Source: a virus | Taxonomy: Duplodnaviria > Heunggongvirae > Uroviricota > Caudoviricetes | Direction: 5' to 3' (one strand) | Length of the DNA stretch: 18,728 nucleotides | IMG/VR virus record: IMGVR_UViG_2654588181_000008 | Coordinates: 1 to 18,728 of that record | Part shown: piece by piece, positions 1,434 to 18,728 of the stretch | Layout: each line of letters begins with the position of its first letter | Position numbering within the stretch: position 1 is the stretch's first letter | The notes under the pieces: generated by a model | What the model was told of the DNA's origin: nothing | Seen by the model: the letters and a program-made list of their open reading frames with translations, nothing else | The model's database searches: none | Program-made: the position numbers and the translations under genes

Positions 1434-1448
1434 AGTTTCCTCCCGGTA

Positions 1449-2105
1449 CTATTTAACATACTTGACTGTTAAACTTATAATTTTACCAATTATTTCAATG
1501 TCTTCTATCTTGCATTCGAAGGCTCTGTTTCCACCCTCGACGAAGATTCTTCCACCGGGTAAACGAGTAATGTCACGGATCGTTATTTCGCCATCAATAC
1601 TTATTACCCATTTACCATCACGTATATCATCAAATTCTTTATCACAAATAAATTCAGAATTGTTATCTGTGATGACAAAAGGTTTTTTAAACGTAGAGGG
1701 TAGAAATTCCTTATCAAAAATATAAAAACCGTCTTTCTGCAATGCTCCATCAGACAATAAATATTTTTCTACTTCTATAGTATTTGTATTTGCTGATGCT
1801 TGCTTTGAACCATGCCCTGTTGTTAGCCAATTAAGCGAGGTGCCCGTTTCAAGGGCGCACTGGATTACCCAATCTGCTGGAAAAATATCACGCATATAGC
1901 GCGTTGCCATGGTGCTCTTAGAAACACCTAAATGATCACAGAGAGCCTGACGGGTACCGAACCCATATGCTTCAACTAAACGTTCTATGGCTTTCTTACC
2001 GCCGCTATTGAAATCCACAAGTCCTCCAAAGAAATCCAAAATTCGTTGACAGATTCCAAAAGCGATCTTAAAGTTGAACCAGAAGTGTTCTTTTGGAGCC
2101 TTCAC
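1449..2105 (-). CDS. cI: Immunity repressor, 186 CI-like
   Basis: Position and orientation (between int and apl, leftward) plus a helix-turn-helix-like segment GTRQALCDHLGVSKSTMATRYMRD. The ORF-track start at 2105 is GTG; the true start may lie further inside. Confidence 0.6.
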   Translation of the reverse strand: MKAPKEHFWFNFKIAFGICQRILDFFGGLVDFNSGGKKAIERLVEAYGFGTRQALCDHLGVSKSTMATRYMRDIFPADWVIQCALETGTSLNWLTTGHGSKQASANTNTIEVEKYLLSDGALQKDGFYIFDKEFLPSTFKKPFVITDNNSEFICDKEFDDIRDGKWVISIDGEITIRDITRLPGGRIFVEGGNRAFECKIEDIEIIGKIISLTVKYVK

Positions 2106-2163
2106 TACTAATCACGACAAACAACGGCTCGCCACAAGCCATATCTAGAAGGAATGTTGCCTT
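2106..2163. promoter_or_regulatory. Lysis-lysogeny switch region between cI and apl (promoters and operators expected here)
   Basis: 58-bp gap between the leftward cI and rightward apl/cII operon; in 186-type phages the lytic and lysogenic promoters sit at this junction. No individual promoter hexamers are assigned with confidence. Confidence 0.35.
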
Positions 2164-2367
2164 ATGACACCTAACATTTCAATTACTCTGAATACACCAC
2201 ATGTCACAATCGAACGTTATAGCGAACTGACTGGCCTTTCTATTGATACGATTAACGACATGTTGGCTGATGGCCGACTACCTCGTCATCGTCTTCGTAA
2301 AGACAAAAAACGTGAAAAGGTAATGATTAACCTGGCTGCTCTGACTGTTGATGCTTTGTCTGCTTAA
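2164..2367 (+). CDS. apl: Apl/Cox-like small DNA-binding excisionase/regulator
   Basis: 67-aa ORF, first gene of the rightward operon directly before cII; AAGGAA upstream of ATG 2164; basic C-terminus [15 protein letters not shown]. Confidence 0.55.
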
Positions 2368-2431
2368 TAGACGTCTATTTTCGCAATAAGACGCTGAGTT
2401 CGATTTTGCGATAAGTTCGGAGTTGAAAACC

Positions 2432-2941
2432 ATGTTTGATTACCAAGTTTCCAAACATCCACATTTTGATGAAGCCTGTCGTGCATTCGCACTGCGCCAC
2501 AATCTGGTGCAACTGGCAGAACGTGCGGGCATGAATGTGCAGATTCTGCGGAACAAGCTGAACCCAGCTCAACCTCATTTATTAACCGCACCAGAAATCT
2601 GGCTGCTTACCGATCTGACTGAAGATTCAACGTTGGTAGATGGTTTTCTGGCACAGATTCACTGCCTGCCATGCGTACCAATTAATGAGGTGGCAAAAGA
2701 GAAACTGCCACATTACGTCATGAGTGCAACCGCAGAGATCGGGCGTGTTGCTGCAGGTGCGGTATCTGGCGATGTAAAAACCAGTGCAGGTCGTCGTGAT
2801 GCTATCAGCAGCATTAACTCTGTAACACGACTGATGGCGTTGGCTGCTGTTTCATTGCAGGCCCGTTTACAGGCTAACCCTGCGATGGCGAGTGCAGTTG
2901 ATACCGTGACTGGCCTCGGTGCTTCATTCGGTTTGCTGTGA
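2432..2941 (+). CDS. cII: CII-like lysogeny establishment activator (186 CII family)
   Basis: 169-aa product starting [45 protein letters not shown]..., which matches phage 186 CII as I recall it, including its length. ATG 2432 with GGAG 9 nt upstream; the track start at 2423 is TTG. Confidence 0.8.
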
Positions 2942-2948
2942 GGTGCTT

Positions 2949-3245
2949 ATGCTGACGAAAGAACCATCATTTGCATCGCTGCTGGTAAAACAAAGCCCGG
3001 CAATGCACTACGGTCACGGCTGGATCACGGGTGAGGATGGAAAACGCTGGCATCCATGTCATTCACAAGATGAATTGCTGTCTGAATTGACCACGAGGAA
3101 ACGGAGAAAGTCCAAATGTATGCGGCAGAAAGTGAAGTGGTTTATCAGTTTCGTTACAGAGGGGAGAGTTATTCAGTACCTGAAGATGATTTGCTCTGTT
3201 GCTATCCGTCATTGTCGGGCGATGGCAGTTACTTTTTCGCGTTAA
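2949..3245 (+). CDS. Hypothetical early protein
   Basis: ATG 2949 with GAGGTG upstream; product MLTKEPSFASLLVKQSPAMHYGHGWITGEDGKRWHPC.... Overlaps the next ORF by 130 nt in another frame, so the end is uncertain. Confidence 0.4.
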   Translation: MLTKEPSFASLLVKQSPAMHYGHGWITGEDGKRWHPCHSQDELLSELTTRKRRKSKCMRQKVKWFISFVTEGRVIQYLKMICSVAIRHCRAMAVTFSR

Positions 3246-3340
3246 AGGATGGGACGTTTTTACGGGGAGAGCAGGTTAAAGAGACGATACGAAAAAATGT
3301 ATCTCCTCTTGAGCGTTACCGTAAGAACAAAGAACGATAG
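3116..3340 (+). CDS. Hypothetical early protein
   Basis: ATG 3116 with GGAGAAAG Shine-Dalgarno 6 nt upstream; 74 aa. Confidence 0.45.
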   Translation: MYAAESEVVYQFRYRGESYSVPEDDLLCCYPSLSGDGSYFFALKDGTFLRGEQVKETIRKNVSPLERYRKNKER

Positions 3341-3362
3341 CTGCGTTTGGGGGATATGAAGT

Positions 3363-3704
3363 ATGGCAATTAATGGCGCTGCAGCAACTGTTCCATTAAG
3401 CCCCGGTGAACGCCTGAATGGACTTAATCACATTGCGGAGTTAAGGGCGAAAGTATTTGGCCTGAATATTGAGTCAGAGCTTGAGCGGTTTATTAAAGAT
3501 ATGCGTGATCCACGGGATATCAATAACGAACAGAATAAACGAGCACTGGCTGCCATATTCTTTATGGCAAAAATTCCAGCTGAACGTCATAGCATCAGCA
3601 TTAATGAGCTGACCACTGACGAAAAGCGGGAGTTGATTAAAGCAATGAATCATTTTCGTGCAGTGGTGAGCTTATTTCCCAGACGGCTAACCATGCCGAA
3701 TTAA
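3363..3704 (+). CDS. Hypothetical early protein
   Basis: 113-aa ORF in the early operon, ATG 3363 preceded by a G-rich stretch. Confidence 0.55.
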   Translation: MAINGAAATVPLSPGERLNGLNHIAELRAKVFGLNIESELERFIKDMRDPRDINNEQNKRALAAIFFMAKIPAERHSISINELTTDEKRELIKAMNHFRAVVSLFPRRLTMPN

Positions 3705-3771
3705 CCAACTAATGAAATTAATGGCGTAAACCCGCCGGGTATCCCTTTATCTAAATTCAGGAGAATTGATT

Positions 3772-4005
3772 ATGCGTAATATTGAAACCCTCAAGACTAA
3801 AACCGGACCGGATGATGCAGGGCTTAATATTTTACTGACAGAGGCTCGTCTGGAAGAACGCCGGGCAAGGGCTGAAGCAATGGCAGCTCGCCTTGATAGC
3901 CTGGCGTGTCATATCACATCCCGCCAGCTAAACCACGTCGAAGCAGCAGAACTACTGCGTGTAACTGCTGAAGCAATCCAGAACGAAGCGCAGGAGATCC
4001 ACTAA
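3772..4005 (+). CDS. Hypothetical early protein
   Basis: ATG 3772 with AGGAG 8 nt upstream (track start 3766 is TTG); 77 aa; its stop overlaps the next start as TAATG. Confidence 0.55.
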   Translation: MRNIETLKTKTGPDDAGLNILLTEARLEERRARAEAMAARLDSLACHITSRQLNHVEAAELLRVTAEAIQNEAQEIH

Positions 4006-4232
4006 TGGCTGATGCAATGGATCTCGTACAGCAGCGCGTTGAAGAAGAACGCCAGCGCCATATCCGTGCTGCCCGTGCCAAAACGCCGGGCGTGTCCCGC
4101 GTGCTTTGCATTGAGTGTGAAGCGCCAATTCCGCCAGCACGCCGCCGCGCCATTCCAGGTGTGCAGCTTTGCATTACCTGTCAGGAAATCGCAGAGCTGA
4201 AAGGCAAACATTACAACGGAGGTGCTGTATGA
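4005..4232 (+). CDS. TraR/DksA-family C4 zinc-finger protein
   Basis: CIECEAPIP...CITCQE gives a CxxC-x17-CxxC arrangement typical of TraR/DksA-like phage proteins; ATG 4005 with AGGAG upstream. Confidence 0.65.
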   Translation: MADAMDLVQQRVEEERQRHIRAARAKTPGVSRVLCIECEAPIPPARRRAIPGVQLCITCQEIAELKGKHYNGGAV

Positions 4233-5086
4233 GCACCATCCTGAAATGGGCGGGAAATAAAACCGCCGTAATGTCCGAACTGAAAAAACATCTTCCAGCT
4301 GGCCCGCGACTGGTTGAACCTTTCGCGGGTTCCTGTGCTGTGATGATGGAGACGGATTATCCCAGCTATCTGGTTGCGGATATTAATCCTGATTTAATCA
4401 ACCTCTATAAAAAGGTTGCCGCTGATTGTGAATCGTTTATATCTCGCGCCAGAGTTTTATTTAAGGAAGCAAACAGGGAGGTGGCTTATTACAACATAAG
4501 GCAGGAGTTTAATTACTCAACTGAAATTACTGATTTCATGAAAGCGGTATATTTCCTGTATCTCAATCGTCACGGTTACCGTGGGTTATGTCGCTATAAC
4601 AAGAGCGGGCATTTCAACATTCCCTACGGTAATTATAAAAATCCGTATTTCCCTGAAAAAGAAATTCGCGCATTTGCAGAGAAAGCCCAACGAGCAACGT
4701 TTATCTGCGCCAGCTTTGATGAAACGCTGGCGATGTTGAAGGCGGGGGATGTGGTGTATTGCGATCCGCCGTATGACGGTACGTTTTCCAGCTATCACAC
4801 TGATGGTTTCACTGAAGATGACCAGTATCACCTGGCATCCGTTCTTGAACATCGGTCATCAGAAGGACATCCGGTCATTGTTTCTAACAGTGACACATCC
4901 CTGATCCGTTCGCTGTATCGCAATTTTACTCACCACTACATCAAGGCAAAACGCAGCATCGGCGTAGCAGCTGGTGAGAGTAAATCTGCAACAGAAATCA
5001 TCGCTGTTTCTGGGGCGCGCTGCTGGGTGGGATTTGATCCTTCGCGTGGCGTGGATAGTTCTGCCGTGTACGGAGTGCGTGCATGA
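4229..5086 (+). CDS. dam: DNA adenine methyltransferase, Dam (GATC) family
   Basis: [35 protein letters not shown] and VVYCDPPY motifs, near-colinear with E. coli Dam as I recall it. ATG 4229 with GGAGG upstream and ATGA overlap with the preceding ORF; the track start at 4169 is an upstream extension. Confidence 0.9.
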
Positions 5087-7497
5087 GCCATGCTGATATG
5101 AACAACTGCAGCGGCTTTAACGAGGCCGCCGCAGCATTCTCATGGAACAGCCCGAAAAAGGCGATTAACCCTTATCTGGACCCGGCGGAAGTTGCGCCGG
5201 TTTCTGCGCTTTCAAACCTGATCACTCTGTACGCTGCCGATAACAAGCAGGAACAACTGCGCCGCGAGGCACTGAGTGATCAGGTCTGGGAGCGTTATTT
5301 CTTTAATGAATCCCGTGATCCTGTCCAGCGCGAAATGGAGCAGGATAAGCTCATTAGCCGGGCAAAGCTGGTGCATGAGCAGCAGCGTTTTAATCCGGAC
5401 ATGGTCATACTGGCGGACGTTAACGCCCAGCCTTCCCATATCAGCAAGCCGCTGATGCAACGTATTGAATACTTCAGCAGCCTGGGCAGGCCAAAGGCTT
5501 ATTCCCGCTATTTGCGTGAGACGATTAAACCATGTCTGGAACGACTGGAGCATGTACGCGACAGCCAGCTATCTGCATCTTTTCGTTTTATGGCAAGCCA
5601 TGAAGGGCTGGACGGCCTGCTGATCTTGCCTGAAATGAGTCAGGATCAGGTGAAGCGCCTGTCTACCCTTGTTGCCGCGCATATGAGCATGTGCCTTGAT
5701 GCAGCTTGTGGTGATTTGTATGCCACCGATGACGTTAAGCCAGAAGAAATCCGCAAGACATGGGAAAGGGTGGCGGCGGAAACCCTGCGTCTGGATGTCA
5801 TCCCTCCTGCGTTTGAGCAACTCCGCCGGAAAAGAAACCGCCGTAAACCCGTACCCTATGAACTCATTCCGGGTTCGCTGGCGCGTATGTTGTGCGCCGA
5901 CTGGTGGTATCGGAAATTATGGAAGATGCGTTGCGAATGGCGGGAAGAGCAGTTGCGTGCTGTTTGCCTGGTCAGCAAAAAAGCATCTCCCTATGTCAGC
6001 TATGAAGCCGTGATGCATAAACGTGAGCAGCGCCGTAAGTCGCTGGAGTTTTTCCGTTCTCATGAACTGGTGAACGAAGACGGCGACACGCTGGATATGG
6101 AGGACGTGGTAAACGCCAGTAGTAGCAACCCGGCGCATCGCCGCAATGAGATGATGGCATGTGTTAAAGGTCTGGAGCTTATCGCGGAAATGCGCGGTGA
6201 CTGCGCCGTTTTCTACACCATCACCTGTCCGTCACGTTTCCATTCCACGCTAAATAACGGCAGGCCCAACCCGACTTGGACAAATGCGACGGTAAGACAA
6301 AGCAGTGATTATCTGGTCGGCATGTTTGCTGCATTTCGTAAGGCGATGTACAAAGCCGGATTGCGCTGGTATGGCGTGCGGGTGGCTGAGCCGCATCATG
6401 ACGGTACAGTTCACTGGCACCTGTTGTGTTTTATGCGCAAAAAAGATCGCCGCGCCATTACTGCTTTGTTGCGTAAGTTTGCCATTCGTGAAGACCGCGA
6501 GGAGCTGGGTAATAACACAGGACCACGCTTTAAGTCTGAGCTGATAAACCCGCGCAAAGGTACACCAACAAGCTACATCGCGAAATACATCAGTAAGAAC
6601 ATTGACGGGTGTGGTCTGGCTGGCGAGATCAGCAAGGAAACGGGTAAATCTCTGCGTGATAACGCTGAATACGTTAATGCCTGGGCGTCTCTGCATCGTG
6701 TTCAGCAATTCCGCTTCTTTGGCATTCCGGGGCGTCAGGCTTACCGTGAACTGCGATTGCTGGCTGGTCAGGCGGCAAGGCAACAGGGTGACAAAAAAGC
6801 AGGTGCGCCGGTACTGGATAACCCGCGCCTTGATGCCATTCTGGCTGCAGCTGATGCTGGTTGCTTTGCCACCTACATCATGAAGCAGGGCGGCGTACTG
6901 GTTCCCCGTAAATATCACCTCATCAGAACCGCTTATGAAATCAACGAAGAGCCGACCGCCTATGGCGATCACGGTATTCGTATTTATGGCATCTGGTCAC
7001 CCATTGCAGAGGGCAAGATCTGCACTCATGCAGTGAAGTGGAAAATGATCCGTAAAGCCGTTGACGTTCAGGAGGCGGCAGCCGACCAGGGCGCTTGCGC
7101 CCCTTGGACTCGTGGCAATAACTGTCCCCTTGCTGAAAATTTGAACCAACAAGGGAAAGACAAATCAGCTGATGGGGACTCCATAACGGATATTACCCGT
7201 ATGAATGACAAGGAGTTGCACGATTACCTGCACAGTATGAGCAAAAAAGAGCGCCGGGAACTGGCTGCAAGGTTACGCCAGGTGAAACCGAAACGGCGTA
7301 AAGACTACAAACAGCGAATTACAGACCATCAGCGACAGCAGCTCGTCTATGAGCTGAAGTCCAGGGGATTTGATGGCAGCGAGAAAGAAGTCGATTTGCT
7401 CCTTCGCGGCGGCAGTATTCCGTCAGGAGCAGGCCTGCGTATCTTCTATCGGAACCAGCGTCTGAAGGAAGATGATAAGTGGCGGAACCTGTATTAA
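5083..7497 (+). CDS. A: Replication initiation protein A (rolling-circle endonuclease, P2 gpA family)
   Basis: 804-aa ORF containing [17 protein letters not shown] and a catalytic-tyrosine region typical of P2 gpA-like proteins; ATGA overlap with dam at 5083-5086. Confidence 0.9.
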
Positions 7498-7566
7498 TTA
7501 CGCGGGTTAACAATTCGTGCTCTTAATAATGCCAGGCATATCAGGCCGATGAACGTAAAAAAACGT

Positions 7567-7609
7567 TTTACATCAGTAAGATTATTATATACTGTAAATA
7601 TAAACAGTA
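7567..7609 (+). promoter_or_regulatory. SOS-regulated promoter: sigma70-like -35 TTTACA (7567-7572) with a LexA box TACTGTAAATATAAACAGTA (7590-7609) over the -10 region
   Basis: Perfect CTGT-N8-ACAG dyad with an AT-rich spacer, 40 bp upstream of a strong AGGAGG ribosome-binding site and ATG 7650. Confidence 0.7.
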
Positions 7610-7649
7610 GTTATGCATACAGTATTGTTTTGGTGTCATAGGAGGAAAG

Positions 7650-7838
7650 ATGCAGGACTATTTTTTGGAGTCTTTGAAGCTCCAGCGCATTGATTTTTTT
7701 CTTAAGCTTGTAGCGGCTAGTGAGTGTAGTGATGAAGAGAAGGGGCTGGCTCTGCAGTGGGTTTCTGAACTGACAGATGAACTCATGGCAAAAATCAGAA
7801 GCCACGAATACAACCGCTCAATGGATGTCATCAGCTGA
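7650..7838 (+). CDS. SOS-controlled small protein, possibly the N-terminal part of a Tum-like antirepressor
   Basis: AGGAGG 4 nt upstream of ATG 7650; 62 aa; directly downstream of the LexA box and 10 nt before the DinI-like gene. Confidence 0.55.
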   Translation: MQDYFLESLKLQRIDFFLKLVAASECSDEEKGLALQWVSELTDELMAKIRSHEYNRSMDVIS

Positions 7839-7848
7839 GGTGACTTTT

Positions 7849-8082
7849 ATGCGCATTGAAATAATGATCGATAAAGAGCAGAAGATTAGCCAGTCTACCC
7901 TGGACGCCCTTGAATCCGAGCTTTACCGCAATCTGCGCCCCCTGTATCCCAAAACGGTAATTCGCATTCGCAAAGGTAGCTCTAACGGTGTGGAACTAAC
8001 CGGACTGCAACTGGATGAAGAAAGAAAACAAGTGATGAAAATTATGCAGAAGGTGTGGGAGGACGACAGCTGGCTGCATTAA
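7849..8082 (+). CDS. DinI-like protein (DinI/MsgA family)
   Basis: MRIEIMIDKEQKISQSTLDALESELYRNL...QKVWEDDSWLH aligns by eye with E. coli DinI (MRIEVTIAK...DALAGELSRR...QETWESADDW). GAGGTG upstream of ATG 7849. Confidence 0.8.
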   Translation: MRIEIMIDKEQKISQSTLDALESELYRNLRPLYPKTVIRIRKGSSNGVELTGLQLDEERKQVMKIMQKVWEDDSWLH

Positions 8083-8090
8083 GAAACGTT

Positions 8091-8126
8091 GCCCCCAGGA
8101 GGATTCATTCTGATGGGGGCTAGTTT
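8091..8126 (+). terminator. Putative hairpin terminator after the DinI-like gene
   Basis: GCCCCCA (8091-8097) and TGGGGGC (8114-8120) form a 7-bp GC stem with a 16-nt loop, followed by TAGTTT; the T tract is weak. Confidence 0.3.
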
Positions 8127-8488
8127 GGGTAACGAGTGAAACGAGGCGTAAGGTGGGCGGCCATTTTGATAAGTGATTGTACGATTTGTGTTGTGAGTTC
8201 AACGGGTCGATGCAACGCTATCCTTAATCAAGGGCACGTTGCTCATACCCATCGATGCAATGAAAATCCATACTCATGGGGAAGACCAGAATGTCCCTGC
8301 CTTTTTCATTTTGTTCAGCACATGCACTATGGCCATTGCCTTCCCAAGCTAGCTATCGTAATCACTCAGCGTCAGTAAACTACTGAAAAATTGTTTTACC
8401 TTGTATATCAATAATGCCAAATCATACCCAAAAAATAGAAAATAATTAGATCGACAGGCAGAAGGCAATGTGAATAATCTTAAAAACC

Positions 8489-8518
8489 TTGACTGCCAGT
8501 GAGGTTTGGTTCTATAAA
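8489..8518 (+). promoter_or_regulatory. Putative sigma70 promoter for darTG (TTGACT-N18-TATAAA)
   Basis: TTGACT at 8489-8494 and TATAAA at 8513-8518, about 30 nt upstream of the darT start. Confidence 0.4.
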
Positions 8519-8549
8519 TAGACTTACGACTTTGAAAGGATGAGTTGAA

Positions 8550-9131
8550 ATGAGCGAAAGGAAAAGAATTGAAGATCAGTATCTTCTCTATCATTTAACA
8601 TGTATGGATAATCTACCTAGTATTTTAGACACAGGATTAAGATCTCGTGCATCAGTAAAAGGTGAGTTTGTTGATGTGGCCGACGGTGAAATAATAACAG
8701 GACGCGAAGCATTAAATTTGCAAACAATGGTTCCTTTTCATTTCTTTACTAAGAATCCATTTGATGGAAGAGTCCTGAAAGATCATAAGGAAAAATCATT
8801 TTGTATTATTTCGGTTTGTCGGGCATTTGCCAAAGAAAATGGTTGGAAAGTTATCCCTAAACATCCATTATCCACCAGTTCTGTTATAGACCTCTTAGAT
8901 TATGAACAAGGAATGGCCCAAATTGACTGGGAGCTTATGAATATAAGGGATTATAAAAATGCAGAATGCAAATCTGTATGTATGGCTGAGTGTTTATCAA
9001 GTGTAACGGTCGAGCCGAAAAATTTCCATTGCATCTTTGTCAAAAATGATAACGAAAAAAAATATGTTGAAAGGTTGATAAAACAACAAGGATTAAGTAT
9101 ATTGATAACGATCAACACTTATATGTTCTAA
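8550..9131 (+). CDS. darT: DarT-like ssDNA ADP-ribosyltransferase toxin (DUF4433 family)
   Basis: N-terminal LLYHLTCMDNLPSILDTGLRS matches the DarT/DUF4433 signature (LYHxTh..NL.SIL..GL) as I recall it; a C-terminal AECL segment is a candidate for the catalytic glutamate. 193 aa, AT-rich, directly followed by a macrodomain gene. Confidence 0.8.
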   Translation: MSERKRIEDQYLLYHLTCMDNLPSILDTGLRSRASVKGEFVDVADGEIITGREALNLQTMVPFHFFTKNPFDGRVLKDHKEKSFCIISVCRAFAKENGWKVIPKHPLSTSSVIDLLDYEQGMAQIDWELMNIRDYKNAECKSVCMAECLSSVTVEPKNFHCIFVKNDNEKKYVERLIKQQGLSILITINTYMF

Positions 9132-9135
9132 TTCT

Positions 9136-10107
9136 ATGATTAAGTATGCAAGCGGAAATCTTCTAAACTCTACATCGCAAGCTCTTGTGAATGCTGTAAA
9201 CTGCCAAGGAGTCATGGGAAAGGGTATCGCTTTGGCTTTTAAAGAAACTTTTCCCTATAATTTCGAAGTTTATAAGAGAGCATGCGCCACTGGTACAATG
9301 AAAATTGGACAGGTTTTAATTGTAGAGGAAAAGGGAAAAATAATTGTAAACTTTCCCACTAAAGATAGTTGGAGAAAAAAATCAACATATGATTTCATCT
9401 CGCAAGGCCTTGAATCTTTAGCAAAAATTATAGACGAAAAAAAAATTACATCAATATCAATACCACCTTTAGGCTGTGGTAATGGGGGCCTCGATTGGAA
9501 TAAGGTTGAGGCTCTTATTTTAAAAACTTTTCAAAATTTAGATAATGTTGATGTGGTAATTTATCCGCCTGCAACTAACAATCAACTTTCAAAAAATAAA
9601 AATGTTATTAATGCTAAGCATCTTTTGGTTCACTACGCCTATGGAAAATTAAAAGTTAAGCAAAAATATTCCCTTTATACAGTTTTTTATATTTGCGAAT
9701 GTATTGAGAAAGCAAATCTTTTTTTATTCGATTTTAAACATGGTCGGCCATACTCTTCTGAGTTAGAAAATATTATGAAGGATATAGCAAACCTTAAAGT
9801 TGAGTTGCAAGGAGATTTTGATGCTTTTATTGAAGATTATATTAATACTCATCAATCCAAAGAGTTACAAACCGAGTTTGGTAAACTAATCTCAACTTTA
9901 AATCCAAGTATAAGTTTGCTCAATGCTCTTAAAAATAAGATTGATTATACAGATAGCGTATATGTGATTACGAGAATTGCTAAAGAAAAAGATCATGGCT
10001 TGCATATTGACAATTTCAAAGAATATGAAAATATTGTGCAGCATTTAATTAAAAATGGATTGGTAATCGAAGATATTTTTAACGAACTAAAAATAAAGGG
10101 AAGTTAG
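9136..10107 (+). CDS. darG: DarG-like antitoxin: N-terminal macrodomain (ADP-ribosyl hydrolase) plus C-terminal domain
   Basis: GNLLNSTSQALVNAVNCQGVMGKGIALAFKETFP and PPLGCGNGGLDW are classic macrodomain motifs; starts 4 nt after darT. 323 aa. Confidence 0.8.
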   Translation: MIKYASGNLLNSTSQALVNAVNCQGVMGKGIALAFKETFPYNFEVYKRACATGTMKIGQVLIVEEKGKIIVNFPTKDSWRKKSTYDFISQGLESLAKIIDEKKITSISIPPLGCGNGGLDWNKVEALILKTFQNLDNVDVVIYPPATNNQLSKNKNVINAKHLLVHYAYGKLKVKQKYSLYTVFYICECIEKANLFLFDFKHGRPYSSELENIMKDIANLKVELQGDFDAFIEDYINTHQSKELQTEFGKLISTLNPSISLLNALKNKIDYTDSVYVITRIAKEKDHGLHIDNFKEYENIVQHLIKNGLVIEDIFNELKIKGS

Positions 10108-10713
10108 TAGCGCTATTTTCAATTTTTTTGCTGAAATTGCGCATGCACACTCTCACGCATTATAGATGCGGCGTTAATCCCGCCAGGAGTGTTGTTTAAT
10201 AAATTGAACTATTTCTGCATTGAAGGATCAACTTACGCATTCGCTGACAACGCAGGCACTCTCCTGGCTAAGCAGAAATTCAGAGTAACCAACTGGCACT
10301 TTTACAACAATTTTATTATCAGTTGCGGCTCCATGACTTTCTGGTGGGATAACAAAGCAATTAAGGCGTGGTATTGTAAGTATCCCGCATAATCATGCTA
10401 GTAACATTTGTCCCCCATGTAACCTAATTAAGGCAACTTCCGCTCTTCGCTCACAGTGAACCTCCATGTTTGTAAACCCGTATATTTCGTTTTTTAAGTG
10501 GTCATTCAGATACGGATTTTCACTTCTCTTGGCTGTGCATGACTATGCTGCATGAAATTGCATGATCGTTTGAGGATCGTTTTTGCTGAGGCCCCCCAGA
10601 ACTGGCGGGCTTTCGCTTATGTCATGCAGGTGCATGAAAATCACTGCATAAAGCGGGCAGGCGTGGCGGGGATACGAGCGCGCGTTAAGCTTCTCACATC
10701 AAGTCCAAAGTTC

Positions 10714-10742
10714 TTGCAACCCAAAAAGCTTACCTTTATCTT
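10714..10742 (+). promoter_or_regulatory. Putative sigma70 promoter for the three-gene operon (TTGCAA-N17-TATCTT)
   Basis: Hexamers at 10714-10719 and 10737-10742, about 35 nt upstream of ATG 10778; the -10 match is imperfect. Confidence 0.3.
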
Positions 10743-10777
10743 TCAATGAGATTTGTCTGCAAAAGTAAGGAAATGAA

Positions 10778-11842
10778 ATGGCAGAGAATGGCCCTATTGA
10801 AGACTTAGCAAAACGCATTTCTAACGATCTTATGAGTCGTTTTAAGTGGCAACAGCATGGCCCCTGTGACCAAGATTTCTCTTGTGATAATGAAACAAAA
10901 CATAAGCCTGAAGGTAAAAAACAAAAGCACACACACCCAGTGGATGTGGTATTTAGTTATAAAGATCCATATTTAAATAAAATTATTTATTTAAATACTG
11001 ATTTGAAAAGTTATAAGGCTGGTTCTATTAATGCAACAAAGATAGAGTCTGCATTAGAGTCTTTAGCAAAAACAATTGATTGTGCTCGATATAGCCAGGA
11101 ATGGTCAGAAAAATATAACTTTTCTCAAATTGATTTCGAAGTTCGAGGTTTATTATTTGTTTTTAATCATGATAATCAATTGCAACATGATTTTTATGAT
11201 TTCTTTAATCCTCCTAAACCTACTAAAGGAAGGAGAGATAAGGCTGTAAACTTAGAAAAGATTCCGTTATGTGCTGGTCAGCAAATTCATATAATTGATC
11301 CATTTCTTATTAATTATATGTTGGCAGTAACGAATGATATGAATGACTTAATTGCAAAAAAAGAATTTCCAGATGAGGATTATGGATTCTATTATCCTCA
11401 ACTTATTTTCCATAAGGTTGCTGTAACTGAAAAATACCTTCCTGCAACTATTGAAGTTTTGTTATCACCATTTATGATTATTAAACATGGTCCTGTTTAT
11501 AAATTCAATAGGGCTAAAGGTATTGAGGAAATGGTTTATCCAGAGGGATTTGTTATATATTACAATAGAAAAGGTAATAGCGATAATGAATTCTTTTATT
11601 TGCTAGACTTGCTTTCTAATTATCAAATTTTAGATGGTATAAATAAAATTAGAATAAGATTGGCGTATCGTGAGAAAGATAATAGAGTTATGTCGCATTT
11701 TCAGCGTGGGATCGAAAAGTATGTTCATGAGTATGGACTGGATGAAGAGGCTAAAAAGAGACTTGAAGATCTGGATGTCAAAGTTGTCTCTACTGTAAAA
11801 GAATTCTTTTCTTCTGAGGTTATTTCTTGGGAGCCGAAATGA
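10778..11842 (+). CDS. Unknown protein A of three-gene cargo operon (354 aa); possible PD-(D/E)xK-type nuclease motif near the N-terminus
   Basis: ATG 10778 with AAGGAA Shine-Dalgarno. HPVDVVF...IIYLNTDLK fits the hhhD-x(n)-(D/E)xK pattern. No Walker A and no transmembrane segment. Stop overlaps the next start as ATGA. Confidence 0.8.
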   Translation: MAENGPIEDLAKRISNDLMSRFKWQQHGPCDQDFSCDNETKHKPEGKKQKHTHPVDVVFSYKDPYLNKIIYLNTDLKSYKAGSINATKIESALESLAKTIDCARYSQEWSEKYNFSQIDFEVRGLLFVFNHDNQLQHDFYDFFNPPKPTKGRRDKAVNLEKIPLCAGQQIHIIDPFLINYMLAVTNDMNDLIAKKEFPDEDYGFYYPQLIFHKVAVTEKYLPATIEVLLSPFMIIKHGPVYKFNRAKGIEEMVYPEGFVIYYNRKGNSDNEFFYLLDLLSNYQILDGINKIRIRLAYREKDNRVMSHFQRGIEKYVHEYGLDEEAKKRLEDLDVKVVSTVKEFFSSEVISWEPK

Positions 11843-12903
11843 AAAATATTCATAGTGTAACTGACAAGGCTTTATGTGATGCTTTGAATCAAAAGCAGAT
11901 TACATTAAATGAAATACAGGATCTTTTCTTGGAAAGAGGTACTATTATTTGTAAAAAAACCCCTAGAAAAGATCTAGCCAAAAACTACTCTCGGATGACT
12001 CATGATTATTATGAACATCAGAAGATAGCAACATTACTCGGAGGTCAGACAAGAGCTGAAAAAAATACATGTGTAAGAATTGAATCTAGTGTCACTAAGG
12101 ACGATATCATAGTGGCAGCAGAGAAGTTAAAAAAAGAAATAACTGCTCAGGATGATTATTGTAAAATTATTATTGATGGTTCTCGAGTTCTTATAGATAT
12201 AAGATATCTATCGACCAATTATAGTAAAAGCGATTTTAAGCAGGCTGTAAATAAAGAAGCTTTAATTGAAATCGAGCCTATTGATAAAGGTTATAGCATC
12301 CGTCGTCCCGATAACGAGAATCTCAAAGATTATGAAGATCTCCTCCTCGGGCATATAATTTCGATTCAGAGTGAACAAGATAATGACAGTAATCTTGATT
12401 TAAAATTAAACGAAATTACTCTTGCTCATAATAGCTCCGCAGATGTTAGGACACTGTTTTTCGATAAATTAATCCGTAGCCTAGATGGATATGAATTAGA
12501 CGATGTTACGGATGCTTATGTATATCATCCAAAACCTGAAACAATAGAAGCAGAAGAGGGAAATACTGAAACTGGAGTTCATGTGTCAAAAGCATCTCTG
12601 AAAGGAGAGGGAGTTCTTAAATCTGATGAACTTAGTGATCTTTATGATAGGGGCTTTTATATCTGGAAAATAAAATGGAAGGTTAAAGAGAAACTAGCAG
12701 ACCCAGATATTTATGAACTCGAAGCTCAATTCGGAGATCCACTAAACTGTACTAATTTTTCATATTTAGTAAAAGGAGTGAAAAAATATAAGTCTAACGG
12801 TCAATATTTCAGTAAACCTCAAAAGCTTTCAGCTAGAGAAACCGATAGATTTAATAAATTAATTGAAAATAGAGCTTATTCTATTATAATGGAAATTAGC
12901 TAA
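11839..12903 (+). CDS. Unknown protein B of three-gene cargo operon (354 aa)
   Basis: ATG 11839 with GGGAG 5 nt upstream, coupled to gene A by the ATGA overlap (track start 11827 is TTG). No recognisable motifs; acidic and soluble. Confidence 0.8.
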   Translation: MKNIHSVTDKALCDALNQKQITLNEIQDLFLERGTIICKKTPRKDLAKNYSRMTHDYYEHQKIATLLGGQTRAEKNTCVRIESSVTKDDIIVAAEKLKKEITAQDDYCKIIIDGSRVLIDIRYLSTNYSKSDFKQAVNKEALIEIEPIDKGYSIRRPDNENLKDYEDLLLGHIISIQSEQDNDSNLDLKLNEITLAHNSSADVRTLFFDKLIRSLDGYELDDVTDAYVYHPKPETIEAEEGNTETGVHVSKASLKGEGVLKSDELSDLYDRGFYIWKIKWKVKEKLADPDIYELEAQFGDPLNCTNFSYLVKGVKKYKSNGQYFSKPQKLSARETDRFNKLIENRAYSIIMEIS

Positions 12904-12922
12904 TTCATCATAAGGAGTGGAT

Positions 12923-13618
12923 ATGTCACAGTTAAGATTAAAGTGGATGAGATTAAAGATCAGAACCAGTTCTGAAGCGATCTTTGATTTTATCAAAAAC
13001 ACCCCTTATTCTGATGCTATTGGTGCTGGTTTTACTAAGTTTGAAACTATTCACAATGGAATATCTGCGACTTTTAATAAAAAAACTATAATGTTGGAGC
13101 CAGTTTCTGATCCATTTGGTGATATTTTAGAGTTCGAAAGGATTGTTTTTGAACAGATTGGTTTTTCTATCCAAACATTAAGTAATAAATTATGTTTGTT
13201 GACTTTTTATAATCCTCCAAAGACAGTTAAGTCTTTTATTGATTTCTTGTCAAAAGGTGAAGGGGTAAATGTTGCCTATGGAAACTTGACGGTAGATCTC
13301 AAGGCTTTTATGAAAATAATTAGGGAGGAGTTTGGAGTCAAAGTCTTCGCCATCTCAAAGGTGAAAGTTTCAAATGTTCCTGTTACTGATAAAACAAGGG
13401 CGTGTTTAGAGCTGAATTCTAGTGGAGATGCTCTAAATGATTTGAAAAAATTTGTTTTGGATAATGATTTTAAACTCGATAAAATAAAAGTTGGGGGGCT
13501 ATATCATGACTCTAAATTTAGCTTTGAACTAACTAGTGGAGCCTCGGCAATAATTCCTGAAGAACATGTGTCGGTCTTTAATGATGCTATTTCTTATATG
13601 GAGCTTGCTAAATTTTAA
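12923..13618 (+). CDS. Unknown protein C of three-gene cargo operon (231 aa)
   Basis: ATG 12923 with AAGGAG 7 nt upstream (track start 12917 is GTG); 19 nt after gene B; followed by a strong hairpin terminator. Confidence 0.8.
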   Translation: MSQLRLKWMRLKIRTSSEAIFDFIKNTPYSDAIGAGFTKFETIHNGISATFNKKTIMLEPVSDPFGDILEFERIVFEQIGFSIQTLSNKLCLLTFYNPPKTVKSFIDFLSKGEGVNVAYGNLTVDLKAFMKIIREEFGVKVFAISKVKVSNVPVTDKTRACLELNSSGDALNDLKKFVLDNDFKLDKIKVGGLYHDSKFSFELTSGASAIIPEEHVSVFNDAISYMELAKF

Positions 13619-13625
13619 AATGTAG

Positions 13626-13660
13626 AGGGTGCCATTGCTTAAATGATGGCACCCTATTTT
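13626..13660. terminator. Rho-independent hairpin terminator, likely bidirectional
   Basis: AGGGTGCCAT (13626-13635) pairs with ATGGCACCCT (13646-13655), a 10-bp stem with a 10-nt loop, followed by ATTTTT. It sits between the convergent three-gene operon and the portal remnant. Confidence 0.6.
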
Positions 13661-13665
13661 TAAAA

Positions 13666-14316
13666 TTAGTTTATATCGTCAAATGTATATTTCATAAATT
13701 GCATGACATGGTCGCCTATCCATTCGTTTAGTTCTTTAATTCTTTGTTGTAGAGGCGTTAACTCATTACGTACAAAGACACGGCTTGCCTTCTCCACATC
13801 CCCAAAACCCCCAACATTATTAGGCATTATCCCCATCATCTGTGGCGGAACGCGATGTGCTGCCATCATGTCATCGCGGCTGACATTTTTGATATTCAGA
13901 AACTCATCCTTCGCCGCAACTTCTGACAAAGGGATGATCTGAAGGCCGTCCTTTTTGCCGTTAGGCGAGTACATAAACAGGTTGCGGAAGTTGCCTGGAC
14001 CTTTGGCGCTTTTCATCGCGTTGCGGAGGTTGTTCACGTCCTCCTGGTTCTGCGCAGCGTCGGTCATGTACATGATGAAGCCAGCATGACTGCCGTTAAT
14101 GTAATACTTTCGACGGAACAGCGTGGCAGACTCATTGAGCAGGGCGGACGGAATGGCAGAAAGATAGCCGGGCAGGCCGTAGATCTCCTGGTTAATGTCC
14201 GGTTCCATCAGATGAAAAATGCTGCCTTTCGTGAACTGATACGGCTGGGTTGTCATACCGTATTGCACAAACCAGTAGGTATTGCCTTCTGGATCACTCG
14301 TAACCAGATGGCGCAA
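13666..14316 (-). pseudogene. Q: Portal protein (P2 gpQ-like) remnant, N-terminally truncated
   Basis: 216-aa minus-strand ORF; the portal assignment rests mainly on position and orientation (first late gene, leftward, as in P2), and intact P2 Q is about 340 aa. No ATG start: the first in-frame codon is TTG, and it abuts the lysB start with an 11-nt gap. Confidence 0.55.
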
Positions 14317-14327
14317 CAGGTAGCAGC

Positions 14328-14756
14328 ATGAACCGGTTGCTGCTGGTTGTGCTGGCGTTATTACTGGCGTCGCTGGGCTGGCAGACGTGGCGGCTGGCTG
14401 ATGCCAGCCAGACCATCAGCACGCAGGCAGACGAGCTGCGGAGCAAAAGTCAGGCACTGGCAAAGAGCAACAGCCAGCTTATCAGCCTGTCCATTCTGAC
14501 TGAAACCAATAACCGGGAGCAGGCGCGGCTCTATGCCGAAGCAGAACAGACCAGCGCGCTGCTGAGACAACGACAACATCGGATTGAGGAACTGAAACGT
14601 GAGAACGAGGATTTACGCCGCTGGGCTAATACTCCTTTGCCTGCTGACATTATCCGGCTGCGGGAACGTCCGGCACTCACCGGAGGTGCAGCTTACCGTC
14701 AGTGGTTGTCCGCGAGTGACGCCGTGTCAGCTGGATCAGGCAGCGCCACACAATAA
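14328..14756 (+). CDS. lysB: LysB-like i-spanin (Rz-like)
   Basis: N-terminal transmembrane segment LLLVVLALLLASLGW followed by charged coiled-coil-like sequence; an overlapping lipoprotein ORF is embedded in another frame. Confidence 0.7.
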   Translation: MNRLLLVVLALLLASLGWQTWRLADASQTISTQADELRSKSQALAKSNSQLISLSILTETNNREQARLYAEAEQTSALLRQRQHRIEELKRENEDLRRWANTPLPADIIRLRERPALTGGAAYRQWLSASDAVSAGSGSATQ

Positions 14757-14889
14757 CGGTGATCTGAACGCATTGCTGGATGAAACGGAGGCCGCCTGGG
14801 CGGTCTGTGCAGACAAAGTGGACATGATTATTGCGTGTCAGGAGCGAAACAGTGAACAAACCACAATCCCTGCGCCACGCCCTCAATAA
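14599..14889 (+). CDS. lysC: LysC-like o-spanin (Rz1-like outer-membrane lipoprotein)
   Basis: Signal peptide MRTRIYAAGLILLCLLTLSGC with lipobox LSGC; overlaps lysB out of frame, the typical Rz/Rz1 arrangement. The start is GTG, so the exact start is uncertain. Confidence 0.6.
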   Translation: MRTRIYAAGLILLCLLTLSGCGNVRHSPEVQLTVSGCPRVTPCQLDQAAPHNNGDLNALLDETEAAWAVCADKVDMIIACQERNSEQTTIPAPRPQ

Positions 14890-15199
14890 AGCGGTGCCTT
14901 ATGTCCGTAATAACCCGGACAAACTGCATCTGTTTGTGGATAACGGTTCGCTGGTTGCCACCGGGGCCAGCTCCATGTCATGGGAGTACCGCTACACCCT
15001 GAACGTGGTGATTGAAGATTTCAGCGGCGACCAGAATCTGCTGATGGCCCCGGTTTTGCTGTGGCTGCGGGATAACCAGCCTGATGCCATCAATAACCCG
15101 ACGTTACGGGAAAAGCTATTCACATTTGAGGTGGATATTCTGCGCAACGATGTCTGTGATATCAGCCTGAACCCGAGAAGAAAGAAAGCACCACGGTGA
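14852..15199 (+). pseudogene. R: Tail completion protein R (P2 gpR-like), C-terminally truncated
   Basis: NKPQSLRHALNKAVPYVRNNPDKLHLFVDNGS...LLWLRDNQPD resembles the P2 gpR N-terminal two-thirds as I recall it; ends early after about 115 aa with an unrelated basic tail. GTG start with AGGAG upstream. Confidence 0.5.
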
Positions 15200-15564
15200 A
15201 GCGTAAGCGCAGGACTAAGAAGCAGAAGAAAGAGCCGGAAGCGAAGCAGGGCGATTACCTGGTGGGTACGGATGAAAACGTGCTGGTACTTAATCGCACT
15301 TATGCCAACCGGAGCAACGCCGAACGAGCGGCGAAAATGCAGTGGGAACGCCTGCAACGCGGCGTTGCGTCATTCTCGCTACAACTGGCAGAAGGTCGGG
15401 CAGATCTCTACACGGAAATGCCTGTGAAGGTCAGTGGCTTTAAACAGCCGATAGATGATGCGGAATGGACCATTACCACCCTGACGCATACTGTCAGCCC
15501 GGATAACGGTTTTACGACCAGTCTGGAGCTTGAAGTGAAGATTGATGATTTCGAAATTGAATGA
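15196..15564 (+). pseudogene. D: C-terminal fragment of tail protein D (P2 gpD-like)
   Basis: ORF ending ...VKVSGFKQPIDDAEWTITTLTHTVSPDNGFTTSLELEVKIDDFEIE directly upstream of ogr, where the D C-terminus sits in P2. No ATG start (GTG overlapping the R-fragment stop). Only about 120 aa against roughly 390 for an intact D. Confidence 0.45.
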
Positions 15565-15654
15565 TTCTTCGCAATGGAGAACTTTTAAGTTTTCAAAATG
15601 GAATAATGCGGTATCATTATTGTGAATTTAGCAAAAATGGGGAGAACTCGAAAA

Positions 15655-15873
15655 ATGATGATTTGCCCACTGTGTGGAAGTGCCGCCCATACTCGCAGCA
15701 GTTTTCAGGTATCTTCATTGACCAAAGAGCGTTACAACCAGTGCCAGAACATTAACTGCAGCCATACTTTTGTTACCCATGAAACTTTTGTTCGTTCGAT
15801 TGCAACGCCAAAAGAGTCAAATCCGGTTCAGCCGCATCCAATGAAATCAGGACAGGTGGCGCTCTCTCTTTGA
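15655..15873 (+). CDS. ogr: Ogr/Delta-family zinc-finger late transcription activator
   Basis: 72-aa product MMICPLCGSAAHTRSSF...KERYNQCQNINCSHTF... with the CxxC-x22-CxxxxC pattern and strong resemblance to P2 Ogr as I recall it; ATG 15655 (track start 15622 is an upstream extension). Confidence 0.9.
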   Translation: MMICPLCGSAAHTRSSFQVSSLTKERYNQCQNINCSHTFVTHETFVRSIATPKESNPVQPHPMKSGQVALSL

Positions 15874-15950
15874 CTCTGCCGCCAATTTGTCGCCATCGTT
15901 AAAAAACACTGCTTCTAACATCATGATTTTAAAAGGCATAAATTTCAGGC

Positions 15951-15996
15951 AACAAAAAACCCATCAACCTTGAACCGAAATGGCGGGGTTGATGGG
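15951..15996 (-). terminator. Rho-independent terminator of ybjL
   Basis: CCCATCAACC (15960-15969) pairs with GGTTGATGGG (15987-15996); an A run on the plus strand at 15951-15959 gives a T run after the hairpin on the minus strand, downstream of ybjL. Confidence 0.5.
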
Positions 15997-16108
15997 CTCC
16001 ACAAAATGGGGACATCAAAGAAAAGCAGTGGCACTAATTAAGACTGATGCCCTGCGGAAAAGTTCTGCGGTTGTGCAAAAAAATTTCATTTTCAGGGCAA
16101 CTTCAGTT

Positions 16109-17794
16109 TTATCCTAATCCTGGCCATACCATGACGATGATTGTCCCTGCCAGCGTCAGCAGGACGTTGGCGATTGCATAGGTGCCCGCATAGCCCAGCG
16201 CCGGGATGTTACTGCGAGCTGTATCACTGATGATCTCCATTGCCGGCGCGCAGGTACGTGCGCCCATCATTGCGCCGAACAACAGTGCGCGGTTCATTCG
16301 CAATACATAAGCACCGAACAAGAAACAGATAACCACGGGCACCAGACTGACAATCAATCCGGCAATCAACATCTGACCGCCAATCGCGCCCAGGCCGTTA
16401 TTAATACCGCTACCGGCGCTCAGACCAACGCCTGCCATAAACACCATCAAGCCGAACTCTTTCACCATGCTTAATGCACCTTGCGGAATGTAACCGAAGG
16501 TCGGGTGGTTAGCACGCATAAAGCCCAGCATAATTCCGGCGAATAACAACCCGGCAGCGTTCCCCATGCCGAAACTGAATGTGCTGAACTGGAAGGTGAT
16601 CATCCCGATCATCAGCCCAATAACAAAGAAGGCGCAAAATGCCAGCAGGTCAGTGACCTGGCTGTGAATCGAGATAAAGCCGATGCGATCGGCGATGGTT
16701 TTTACGCGACGGGCATCACCGCTGACTTGTAAAACGTCACCTTTGTTAAGCACGACGTTGTCATCTATCGGCATCTCAATCTGGCTACGAATGACGCGGT
16801 TAAGGAAGCAACCGTGATCGGTCAACTTCAGTTGTGCGAGACGTTTACCTACAGCGTTATGGTTTTTAACGACCACTTCTTCAGTGACGATACGCATGTC
16901 GAGAAGGTCACGATCGAAAACTTCTTTACCGTTACGGAAGCTGGGATCGAGTCGGGCATGGGCGTCGGGATAGCCTACCAACGCTATTTCATCGCCCATT
17001 TGTAGCACGGCATCACCGTCTGGATTTGCCAGAATCCCGTTACGTCGAATACGTTCAATGTAGCAGCCGGTTTGTCGATAAATACCCAGTTCACGCAGAT
17101 TTTTGCCGTCGGTCCAGGCCACCAGCTCCGGGCCGACGCGATAGGCGCGGATCACCGGTAAATAAACCTTACGGTTGGCATCAGTGTCCAGGCCACGTTC
17201 GCGGGCGATTTGCTGGGCGCTGGTCTGTAAGTCCTGATGCTGCAATTTCGGCAAGTAACGCGCACCAACAATCAAACTCACCAGACCGATTAAATAGGTT
17301 AAGGCATACCCGAGGCTCAGATTATCCAGTGCCAGTGAGAGCTGCCTGCTTTCCATGCCGGAATGACGCAGTGTATCGCCAGCACCGACCAGAACCGGTG
17401 TCGACGTCATAGAGCCTGCTAACATACCGGCCGTCAGGCCAATATCCCAGCCAAACAGCTTACCTAACCCTAAGGCGATCACCAGCGCACTGCCAACCAT
17501 CACCAGTGCTAACATTAGGTAATTTTTCCCATCGCGAAAAAAAATGGAAAAAAAGTTCGGTCCGGCTTCGACCCCGACGCAGAAAATAAACAGCATAAAG
17601 CCAAGATTAAGCGCATCGGTGTTAATGCTGAAATGTTGTTGGCCTAATAACAGCGATACGACTAAAACGCCAATGGAATTACCCAGTTGGATCGAACCAA
17701 GTCGTAACTTTCCGAGACATAGCCCAAGCGCGAGGACCACAAATAATAACAGAATGTAATTCCCATTTAACAATTCGGCGACGTTTATATTCAC
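16109..17794 (-). CDS. ybjL: Putative transport protein YbjL (two-domain membrane transporter with central TrkA-C-like domains)
   Basis: 561-aa polytopic membrane protein beginning [29 protein letters not shown]..., recognised as E. coli YbjL; GTG start. Confidence 0.85.
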
Positions 17795-18063
17795 GGAGGC
17801 TAACTTCTTGTTTACTAGTAAGCTGTTGAAAGAAATGGTAATTTACGATAATGTTTTTTACCAGAATTCAGGGCGCAGATTCATTCAGCGCACCTAAACG
17901 ATAGTAAAGTAACAATATATTTTACTAGTGTAATCACATTAGGTATCAACGGCTATATGAATTGCGTTGGCCTATATTAGCATGGAATGCGAAGCGGCTT
18001 TATCTTACTGAACGCCACACTGGCGAAAAATGTGTTCGATAGACGCAGTGTCAGGAGGAACGA

Positions 18064-18441
18064 GTGAAACATAAACAACGTTGGGCGGGGGCAATCTGCT
18101 GTTTTGTCCTCTTCATTGTGGTGTGCCTTTTTCTGGCGACGCACATGAAAGGCGCTTTTCGGGCTGCCGGGCATCCTGAAATCGGCTTGCTATTTTTCAT
18201 TCTTCCTGGAGCAGTGGCCAGCTTCTTTTCACAGCGTAGAGAAGTCCTGAAACCTCTGTTTGGCGCAATGCTGGCGGCACCCTGTTCGATGCTCATTATG
18301 CGGCTGTTTTTTTCACCGACGCGCTCATTCTGGCAAGAGCTGGCATGGTTACTAAGCGCGGTGTTCTGGTGTGCGCTGGGGGCACTGTGTTTCTTATTTA
18401 TCAGTAGTTTGTTTAAACCACAGCACAGAAAAAATCAGTAA
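18064..18441 (+). CDS. ybjM: Inner membrane protein YbjM
   Basis: 125-aa hydrophobic protein MKHKQRWAGAICCFVLFIVVCLFLATH..., consistent with E. coli YbjM and the ybjL-ybjM-grxA gene order. Confidence 0.8.
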   Translation: MKHKQRWAGAICCFVLFIVVCLFLATHMKGAFRAAGHPEIGLLFFILPGAVASFFSQRREVLKPLFGAMLAAPCSMLIMRLFFSPTRSFWQELAWLLSAVFWCALGALCFLFISSLFKPQHRKNQ

Positions 18442-18460
18442 AGCCCTCAACGCGAGGGCT
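18442..18460. terminator. Hairpin between convergent ybjM and grxA, likely grxA terminator
   Basis: AGCCCTC (18442-18448) pairs with GAGGGCT (18454-18460) around a 5-nt loop; a T run follows on the minus strand (plus-strand A run 18430-18435). Confidence 0.5.
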
Positions 18461-18470
18461 TGTCAGACGA

Positions 18471-18728
18471 TCAGGCGTCCAGATTTTCTTTCACCCATGC
18501 AGCAAAATCGGTATAGCCGCCGATATGTTGCTGATCGACAAAAATCTGCGGCACGGTTTCTACGGGTTTACCTGCCTTTTGTTGTAGATCTTCTTTAGTG
18601 ATCCCTTCCGCACGAATATCTACATACTGATACTGAAAATCATCGCGTTCATTGCTCAATTTCTCAGCCAGATCTTTTGCACGCACACAGTAAGGGCAAC
18701 CCGAACGACCAAAAATAACGGTTTGCAT
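18471..18728 (-). CDS. grxA: Glutaredoxin 1
   Basis: 85-aa product MQTVIFGRSGCPYCVRAKDLAEKL... with the CPYC active site, recognised as E. coli GrxA; start codon is at the window edge (18726-18728). Confidence 0.9.
   Translation of the reverse strand: MQTVIFGRSGCPYCVRAKDLAEKLSNERDDFQYQYVDIRAEGITKEDLQQKAGKPVETVPQIFVDQQHIGGYTDFAAWVKENLDA

Follow-up and report, generated by a model that had tools for sequence, protein, structure and literature searches.

Among the described systems closest to the operon considered in this study is GAPS4, a two-gene system (GapS4a and GapS4b) reported in the GMT islands paper of Mahata et al. and in a later preprint (bioRxiv 10.1101/2025.09.07.674715). According to the preprint, the two proteins assemble as a2b2, with the b subunits arranged in a ring, and act as a DNase that degrades host and phage DNA in an abortive response set off by DNA breaks (from nalidixic acid or a T6SS DNase). 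Replacing one aspartate of GAPS4a with alanine (D59A in the MAVP-R protein, D49A in the RiKo protein) abolishes defence, and the same residue is needed for DNA degradation (10.1101/2025.09.07.674715). A second system, the three-gene ‘hp+hp+hp’ (3HP) of P2 hotspots, protects against P1 (Rousset et al. 2022, Cell Host Microbe, PMC9122126), the tested construct being pFR109 (‘hp + hp + hp’) from E. coli E1114 (Table S2, PMC9122126). 3HP was validated in 2022, and the literature still describes its three proteins as lacking recognisable domains. The HHpred results in the supplement of the original study list, under ‘HP + HP + HP 1’, residues 4–94 of Hp1 against PF08878 (listed as Cap4_SAVED; 83%, E = 4.2), a match that the authors graded as no clear domain (PMC9122126), and a 2024 survey placed Rst_3HP among the systems not assignable to a known domain family. 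Our literature search returned neither a mechanistic paper on 3HP nor a biochemical or genetic test of the protein analysed below.

We analysed a window of 18,728 nucleotides, positions 1 to 18,728 of the Caudoviricetes record IMGVR_UViG_2654588181_000008 in IMG/VR, within which a first-pass annotation had flagged a possible PD-(D/E)xK nuclease core in protein A, the product of the first gene of a three-gene operon. The window is a P2-like prophage, repressor gene included, with a variable defence hotspot between the gpA/DinI genes and the portal gene (Table 1), and E. coli NZ_CP182383.1 has an annotated prophage that is almost identical. After gpA and a DinI-like gene, the G+C content falls from ~0.52 to ~0.30–0.35 at 8.5–13.5 kb, and this low-G+C stretch carries two cargo cassettes, first DarTG, a toxin-antitoxin defence pair, and then the three-gene operon, which we identify as 3HP. 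RefSeq places the start of DarG at 9214; the frame opening at the ATG at 9136, 4 nt past the DarT stop, aligns to the DarG profile from its first position and takes in the beginning of the macro domain (residues 18–127), so the longer form looks right. The two cassettes may have been joined by an insertion sequence event, since a transposase-like fragment lies between them and, in relatives that carry DarTG only, an IS5/IS1182 transposase adjoins DarG. DarTG and 3HP are adjacent, as here, in one of 5,426 complete E. coli genomes.

Table 1. Features of the prophage and of its 3HP operon, with coordinates in the 18,728-nucleotide window
Feature	Position	Strand	Basis or remark
Integrase	1-1209	-	
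DNA adenine methylase	4169-5086		
Replication endonuclease gpA	5083-7497		
DarT	8550-9131		
DarG	9136-10107		
ORF fragment, 67 aa, transposase-like, between DarTG and 3HP	10189-10392		phrog_2262, E 5e-7
Small conserved ORF, 65 aa, directly 5′ of Hp1	10552-10749		phrog_28685, E 8e-37
AAGGA ribosome-binding site, 6 nt 5′ of the protein A ATG	10767..10771	+	Read from the sequence
Hp1 (protein A), 354 aa; predicted N-terminal PD-(D/E)xK domain and C-terminal domain of unassigned fold	10778..11842	+	ORF; PADLOC Hp1, E 1.2e-64
Predicted nuclease domain of Hp1, residues ~1-135	10778..11182	+	alpha1 5-20, beta1 25-27, beta2 57-63, beta3 68-79, alpha2 86-103, beta4 120-130
H53-P54-V55-D56, first predicted active-site motif (HPxD; HGxD in GAPS4a)	10934..10945	+	H53 and D56 in 256/256; hhalign and MAFFT
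D75-L76-K77, canonical (D/E)xK motif	11000..11008	+	255/256 and 256/256; model strand 68-79
N130-H131-D132, conserved extra motif at the end of strand 4 (N-N-D in GAPS4a)	11165..11173	+	Alignments
Hp2 (protein B), 354 aa from ATG 11839, overlapping the stop of A as ATGA; predicted RdgC-like fold	11839..12903	+	PADLOC Hp2, E 1.6e-39
Hp3 (protein C), 231 aa, no recognisable domain	12923..13618	+	PADLOC Hp3, E 1.1e-10; phrog_5850
Intrinsic-terminator-like hairpin, 12-bp stem and T-rich tail ATTTTT, ending the 3HP operon	13626..13655	+	

The small ORF directly upstream of Hp1 accompanies 3HP in other P2-like prophages too, with matches beginning at ~10469–10535; in strain PEC178 it carries an internal stop and is annotated as a pseudogene. 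We name no promoter for the operon, because a scan returned 15 sites against 14.6 in shuffled sequences. At its other end, the strong terminator-like hairpin faces the convergent remnant of the portal gene. The prophage itself is defective (13666–15564; junction 14280–14282): ~6.7 kb are missing compared with an intact relative, including most of the portal gene and the genes for terminase, scaffold, capsid, head completion, holin and lysozyme. The deletion joins a 216-aa portal remnant to lysB, after which only fragments of tail and gpD genes are found until ybjL (16109–17794). The defence hotspot has outlived the particle-making ability of this prophage.

The PADLOC 3HP models (PDLC03004-6) match proteins A, B and C in order, as Hp1, Hp2 and Hp3 (Table 1). 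Hp1 of pFR109 is 36% identical to protein A (E = 1e-68) and keeps the signature THPSD...NTDLKSY, and the window Hp2 is ~29% identical to that of the pFR109 subtype; we therefore regard the window operon as a divergent subtype of the validated system. In both, three co-oriented genes coding for ~350, 355 and 230 aa occupy the P2 hotspot, flanked by the replication gene/DinI on one side and the portal gene on the other, whereas only the window operon sits beside a DarTG cassette and in a prophage without head genes. In a survey of 80 species-level loci found by their Hp1 motifs, and hence uninformative on motif conservation, 71 had enough downstream sequence and 64 of these encoded Hp1, Hp2 and Hp3 in this order in overlapping or abutting frames. 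Complete triads occur on an Enterobacteriaceae IncFIB plasmid (NZ_CP070546.1, 3995–6988; 28% identity) and in the filamentous (Tubulavirales) Pseudomonas phage 99-2 (OR621024.1, 3992–6889), and others in integrase-flanked islands and, in the opposite orientation within the hotspot, in a Klebsiella P2-like phage. 3HP is thus not confined to P2-type hotspots, as its presence in filamentous phage and IncFIB plasmids demonstrates, and its recurrence across the surveyed loci, plasmid, phages and islands makes the three-gene arrangement a stable difference from GAPS4. The Hp1 of Pseudomonas phage 99-2 already bears the annotation ‘nuclease related protein’.

Assignment of protein A to the PD-(D/E)xK nucleases has precedents in public annotation. 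The protein matches phrog_7059 (E = 3e-149). RefSeq has the same sequence (100% identity) as WP_073508629.1, called ‘PD-(D/E)XK nuclease domain-containing protein’ in NZ_CM168017.1 and, in a second genome, ‘hypothetical protein’. The Pfam family PF26115 (PDDEXK_GAPS4) is precomputed on every relative of protein A, and in UniRef several bear the name ‘GAPS4 PD-(D/E)XK nuclease domain-containing protein’. Local Pfam-A scans of all three proteins, up to E <= 10, gave nothing relevant; annotated carriers of PF26115 were likewise without a match there, and the empty scan is no evidence against the domain because that model is probably absent from our copy. No meaningful match emerged from PDB sequence searches, whether the query was the single protein A sequence or a profile of A or of B. 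Since the exact protein is labelled in RefSeq, its family is in Pfam and the operon is catalogued, the PD-(D/E)xK call on protein A is not new.

Positions 10937–11008 of the window encode P54 to K77 of the 354-aa protein (the translation of the plus-strand ORF 10778–11842), and the motif quoted in the first-pass annotation starts one codon earlier, at H53 (10934–10936). The segment reads K50-H51-T52-H53-P54-V55-D56, continues as V57-V58-F59-S60-Y61-K62-D63 and P64-Y65-L66-N67, and closes with K68-I69-I70-Y71-L72-N73-T74-D75-L76-K77. The numbering originally given to the two aspartates and the lysine (D56, D75, K77) is exact, and the roughly 19 residues said to separate D56 from D75 are indeed 19. 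The accompanying caution that short motifs of this kind arise by chance was well placed: a strict pattern (hydrophobic-D-hydrophobic ... hydrophobic-x-[DE]-x-K) is present in 38% of shuffled versions of protein A and a loose D...[DE]xK pattern in 99%, so that the bare pattern is not significant. What lifts the motif above chance is its conservation together with the predicted structure.

Searching ~5.8 billion proteins with protein A recovered 187 relatives, and a profile search of 1.84 billion cluster representatives recovered 502 at E <= 0.001. Among 256 aligned relatives of near full length (290 aa or more, 26–88% identity), H53, D56 and K77 are each present in 256 of 256 sequences and D75 in 255, the single exception being a glutamate. 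Just nine positions are at least 99% conserved among these 256 homologues (C36, H53, D56, D75, K77, S78, C102, F127 and N130), four of which (H53, D56, D75 and K77) fall in the flagged region. E3 is kept in 243 of the 244 sequences that have this position, and the extra motif at the end of strand 4 is also well preserved (N130 in 254, H131 in 239 and D132 in 248 of 256). Two cysteines, C36 (10883–10885; 255 of 256) and C102 (11081–11083; 256 of 256), are in addition invariant and co-aligned in GAPS4a; the two might, along with the conserved H42 and H53, make up a metal site or a disulphide. Were H53 a metal ligand, its role would be structural and not catalytic.

An AlphaFold2 model of protein A, computed from a 48-sequence alignment (pLDDT 87.9, pTM 0.85), folds the N-terminal part into an alpha-beta-beta-beta-alpha-beta arrangement, the core of PD-(D/E)xK enzymes (Table 1). 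D56 directly precedes the second strand and D75 and K77 lie within the third, the places that catalytic residues occupy in this superfamily. Structure prediction, proposed as a check when the motif was flagged, therefore places the motif residues inside an alpha-beta nuclease core, and the modelled core, the conservation and the profile homology to GAPS4a described below all bear out the suggested fit to a restriction-endonuclease-like fold. Together, sequence and model establish a predicted PD-(D/E)xK domain in the N-terminal ~135 residues, with D56 and D75-x-K77 as its predicted active site; the topology would bring the three side chains together, and the invariant H53 may assist them. E3 on helix 1 probably assists as well, although its role is uncertain because residues 1–3 have pLDDT < 50.

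Structure comparison of the model returned the Upx restriction endonuclease (score 8.7), NucS (8.6), FokI (8.4) and Shedu SduA (8.1), followed by Hachiman HamA (7.3), the R2 retrotransposon protein (7.3), whose endonuclease is of restriction-enzyme type, and then Hjc, MGME1, Cas4 and McrC; the fold is the same in all, over 90–143 aligned residues. Foldseek found no match in the PDB at E <= 0.001, and its credible weak matches are PD-(D/E)xK enzymes (HamA, probability 0.80–0.87; MGME1, 0.90; also MspJI, EcoO109I and NucS). The C-terminal ~200 residues of Hp1 matched nothing in the structure comparison. If PF08878 is the HamA/DUF1837 nuclease family, the HHpred match listed for Hp1 in 2022 would be an early, faint trace of the nuclease domain. 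Resemblance to these enzymes is one of fold: the FokI cleavage domain, NucS and the minimal PD-(D/E)xK domains of the archaeal AF1548 type are 7–16% identical to Hp1, which has no DNA-recognition domain of the restriction-enzyme type. SduA and HamA, PD-(D/E)xK nucleases acting on DNA ends or aberrant DNA, have no sequence similarity to Hp1 and differ from it in their partners, which are the HamB helicase for HamA and its own N-terminal domain for SduA.

At the level of sequence profiles, Hp1 resembles GAPS4a, a defence nuclease whose PD-(D/E)xK nature has experimental support. The NCBIfam model antiphage_GapS4a (NF047933) matches protein A at E = 3.7e-10 and 39 of 48 members of its family (best 1.9e-15); the 39.5 bits scored by protein A lie far below the curated cut-off of 270, which makes it a relative and not a member of the GapS4a subfamily. 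As controls, GAPS4a RiKo and GAPS4b, taken like the other GAPS4 sequences from the preprint supplements, scored 291 and 324 bits against the respective models. In hhalign, the Hp1 family and a set of seven GAPS4a sequences matched with a probability of 97.2 and E = 2.9e-11 over 242 columns, spanning residues 1–266 of Hp1 and 1–246 of GAPS4a; the match covers the nuclease domain and some of the C-terminal region. By these profile comparisons, Hp1 is a distant homologue of GAPS4a.

The residues invariant in both families and co-aligned by hhalign and MAFFT include G-E3, W24, C36, T-H53-x-x-D56, C102, S106 and G-x-L-F (LF126-127)...N-x-D. Both methods align THPVD56 of Hp1 with THGID49 of GAPS4a, whose aspartate is D59 in MAVP-R, and GLLFVFNHD with GVLFYLNND. 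The second motif differs, with DxK and its canonical acidic residue in Hp1 against SxK in GAPS4a, as does the first in its second residue (HPxD against HGxD). D75-L-K77 lies two residues out of register with S69-A-K71 of GAPS4a in both alignments, so the equivalence of K77 and K71 is only inferred; shifting the preceding gap by one residue would align DLK with SAK.

The second and third genes show how far the resemblance to GAPS4 extends. Hp2 is predicted to have the fold of RdgC and lambda RexA, and is a probable DNA-binding ring or horseshoe subunit on the basis of that model; compared with RdgC it has an extra N-terminal helical region of ~70 residues. Its sequence matched neither RdgC nor any entry in Pfam, NCBIfam or the PDB, which leaves it outside the RdgC family by sequence. 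The second gene is of similar size in 3HP and GAPS4. The GapS4b HMM matches one of 56 Hp2 relatives (1.1e-5) and, nearly end to end, the Hp2 of the Klebsiella P2-like phage (E = 6.8e-6), a protein whose homology to Hp2 is clear (hhalign, E = 3.6e-45). Set directly against GAPS4b RiKo by hhalign, BLASTP and a 127-sequence Hp2 HMM, Hp2 gave no significant match, with collinear patches of marginal strength at best (E = 0.013 for a single target). Drawn from two faint GapS4b HMM matches and synteny, the evidence for a common origin of Hp2 and GapS4b is only suggestive.

GAPS4 consists of two genes, a and b (or their fusion), and has no counterpart of Hp3. We detected no relative of Hp3 outside the 3HP system and no match in Pfam or NCBIfam. 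Derivation of Hp3 from Hp1 or Hp2 by divergence, or its correspondence to a part of GAPS4b, was considered and rejected (hhalign probabilities <1%). Hp3 is the fastest-evolving of the three proteins, being 25–28% identical in loci where Hp1 is 39–45% identical, and a word-indexed search recovered 27 Hp3 relatives, all at least 60% identical, against 187 of Hp1 and 119 of Hp2. Divergence of this kind would be expected if Hp3 were under diversifying pressure, as a phage-facing sensor or an inhibitor target might be.

With a non-enzymatic, DNA-binding RdgC-like fold predicted for Hp2 and no detectable domain in Hp3, the original proposal of protein A as the likely effector is the best reading of the operon, and we consider it likely that Hp1 is the catalytic PD-(D/E)xK nuclease of the 3HP system. 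Its fold might act on RNA, for example tRNA or mRNA, and not on DNA, in line with some members of the superfamily and with many defence effectors, which cleave RNA; we consider this improbable. It is about equally improbable, in our estimate, that Hp1 is a catalytically silent or purely DNA-binding sensor of PD-(D/E)xK fold with toxicity residing in Hp3 or in a host factor. Inactive PD-(D/E)xK domains do exist in the superfamily, and Hp3, having no assignable function, could hide an effector. A degenerate site would not, however, be expected to keep the full catalytic set of D, D-x-K and H invariant over 256 sequences, and the equivalent aspartate of the homologous GAPS4a is needed for defence and DNA degradation (10.1101/2025.09.07.674715). 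That the motif is a chance match in a protein without a nuclease fold would agree with its frequency in shuffled sequences and with the empty local Pfam and PDB sequence searches, but is contradicted by the AlphaFold2 model, the conservation, the fold matches and the hhalign alignment to GAPS4a, and we give it a negligible chance.

For Hp1 as the nuclease of 3HP, GAPS4 offers a template. By analogy, and as the likeliest mechanism, Hp1 would act in complex with Hp2, whose RdgC fold is expected to form a DNA-encircling or DNA-clasping dimer, and the complex would sense abnormal DNA, such as free ends or breaks arising during infection. Once activated, it would degrade DNA non-selectively, stopping the phage at the cell's cost. 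Hp3, absent from GAPS4, may speculatively be an extra regulatory or specificity subunit. We infer the trigger, the substrate (DNA or RNA) and the abortive outcome from the same analogy, and hold this full GAPS4-like clamp-and-cut model only tentatively. More broadly, and in an equally speculative vein, 3HP and GAPS4 could be two branches of one ancient module, in which an RdgC-fold clamp (Hp2/GapS4b) that loads only on free or abnormal DNA ends licenses a FokI-like PD-(D/E)xK nuclease (Hp1/GapS4a), with the fast-evolving Hp3 tuning or gating the response.

The value retained by this analysis lies in the explicit link between 3HP and GAPS4, in the RdgC-like fold of Hp2 and in a concrete, testable mechanism for 3HP. 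If the clamp-and-cut model is true, 3HP would join Shedu, Hachiman and GAPS4 as systems in which a sensor of DNA state is coupled to a PD-(D/E)xK nuclease, and it should share the liabilities of GAPS4, namely sensitisation to quinolones and DNase toxins. A two-branch module, if real, would give 3HP its first mechanism and would link the RdgC/RexA fold with the sensing of DNA ends across phage defence in general.
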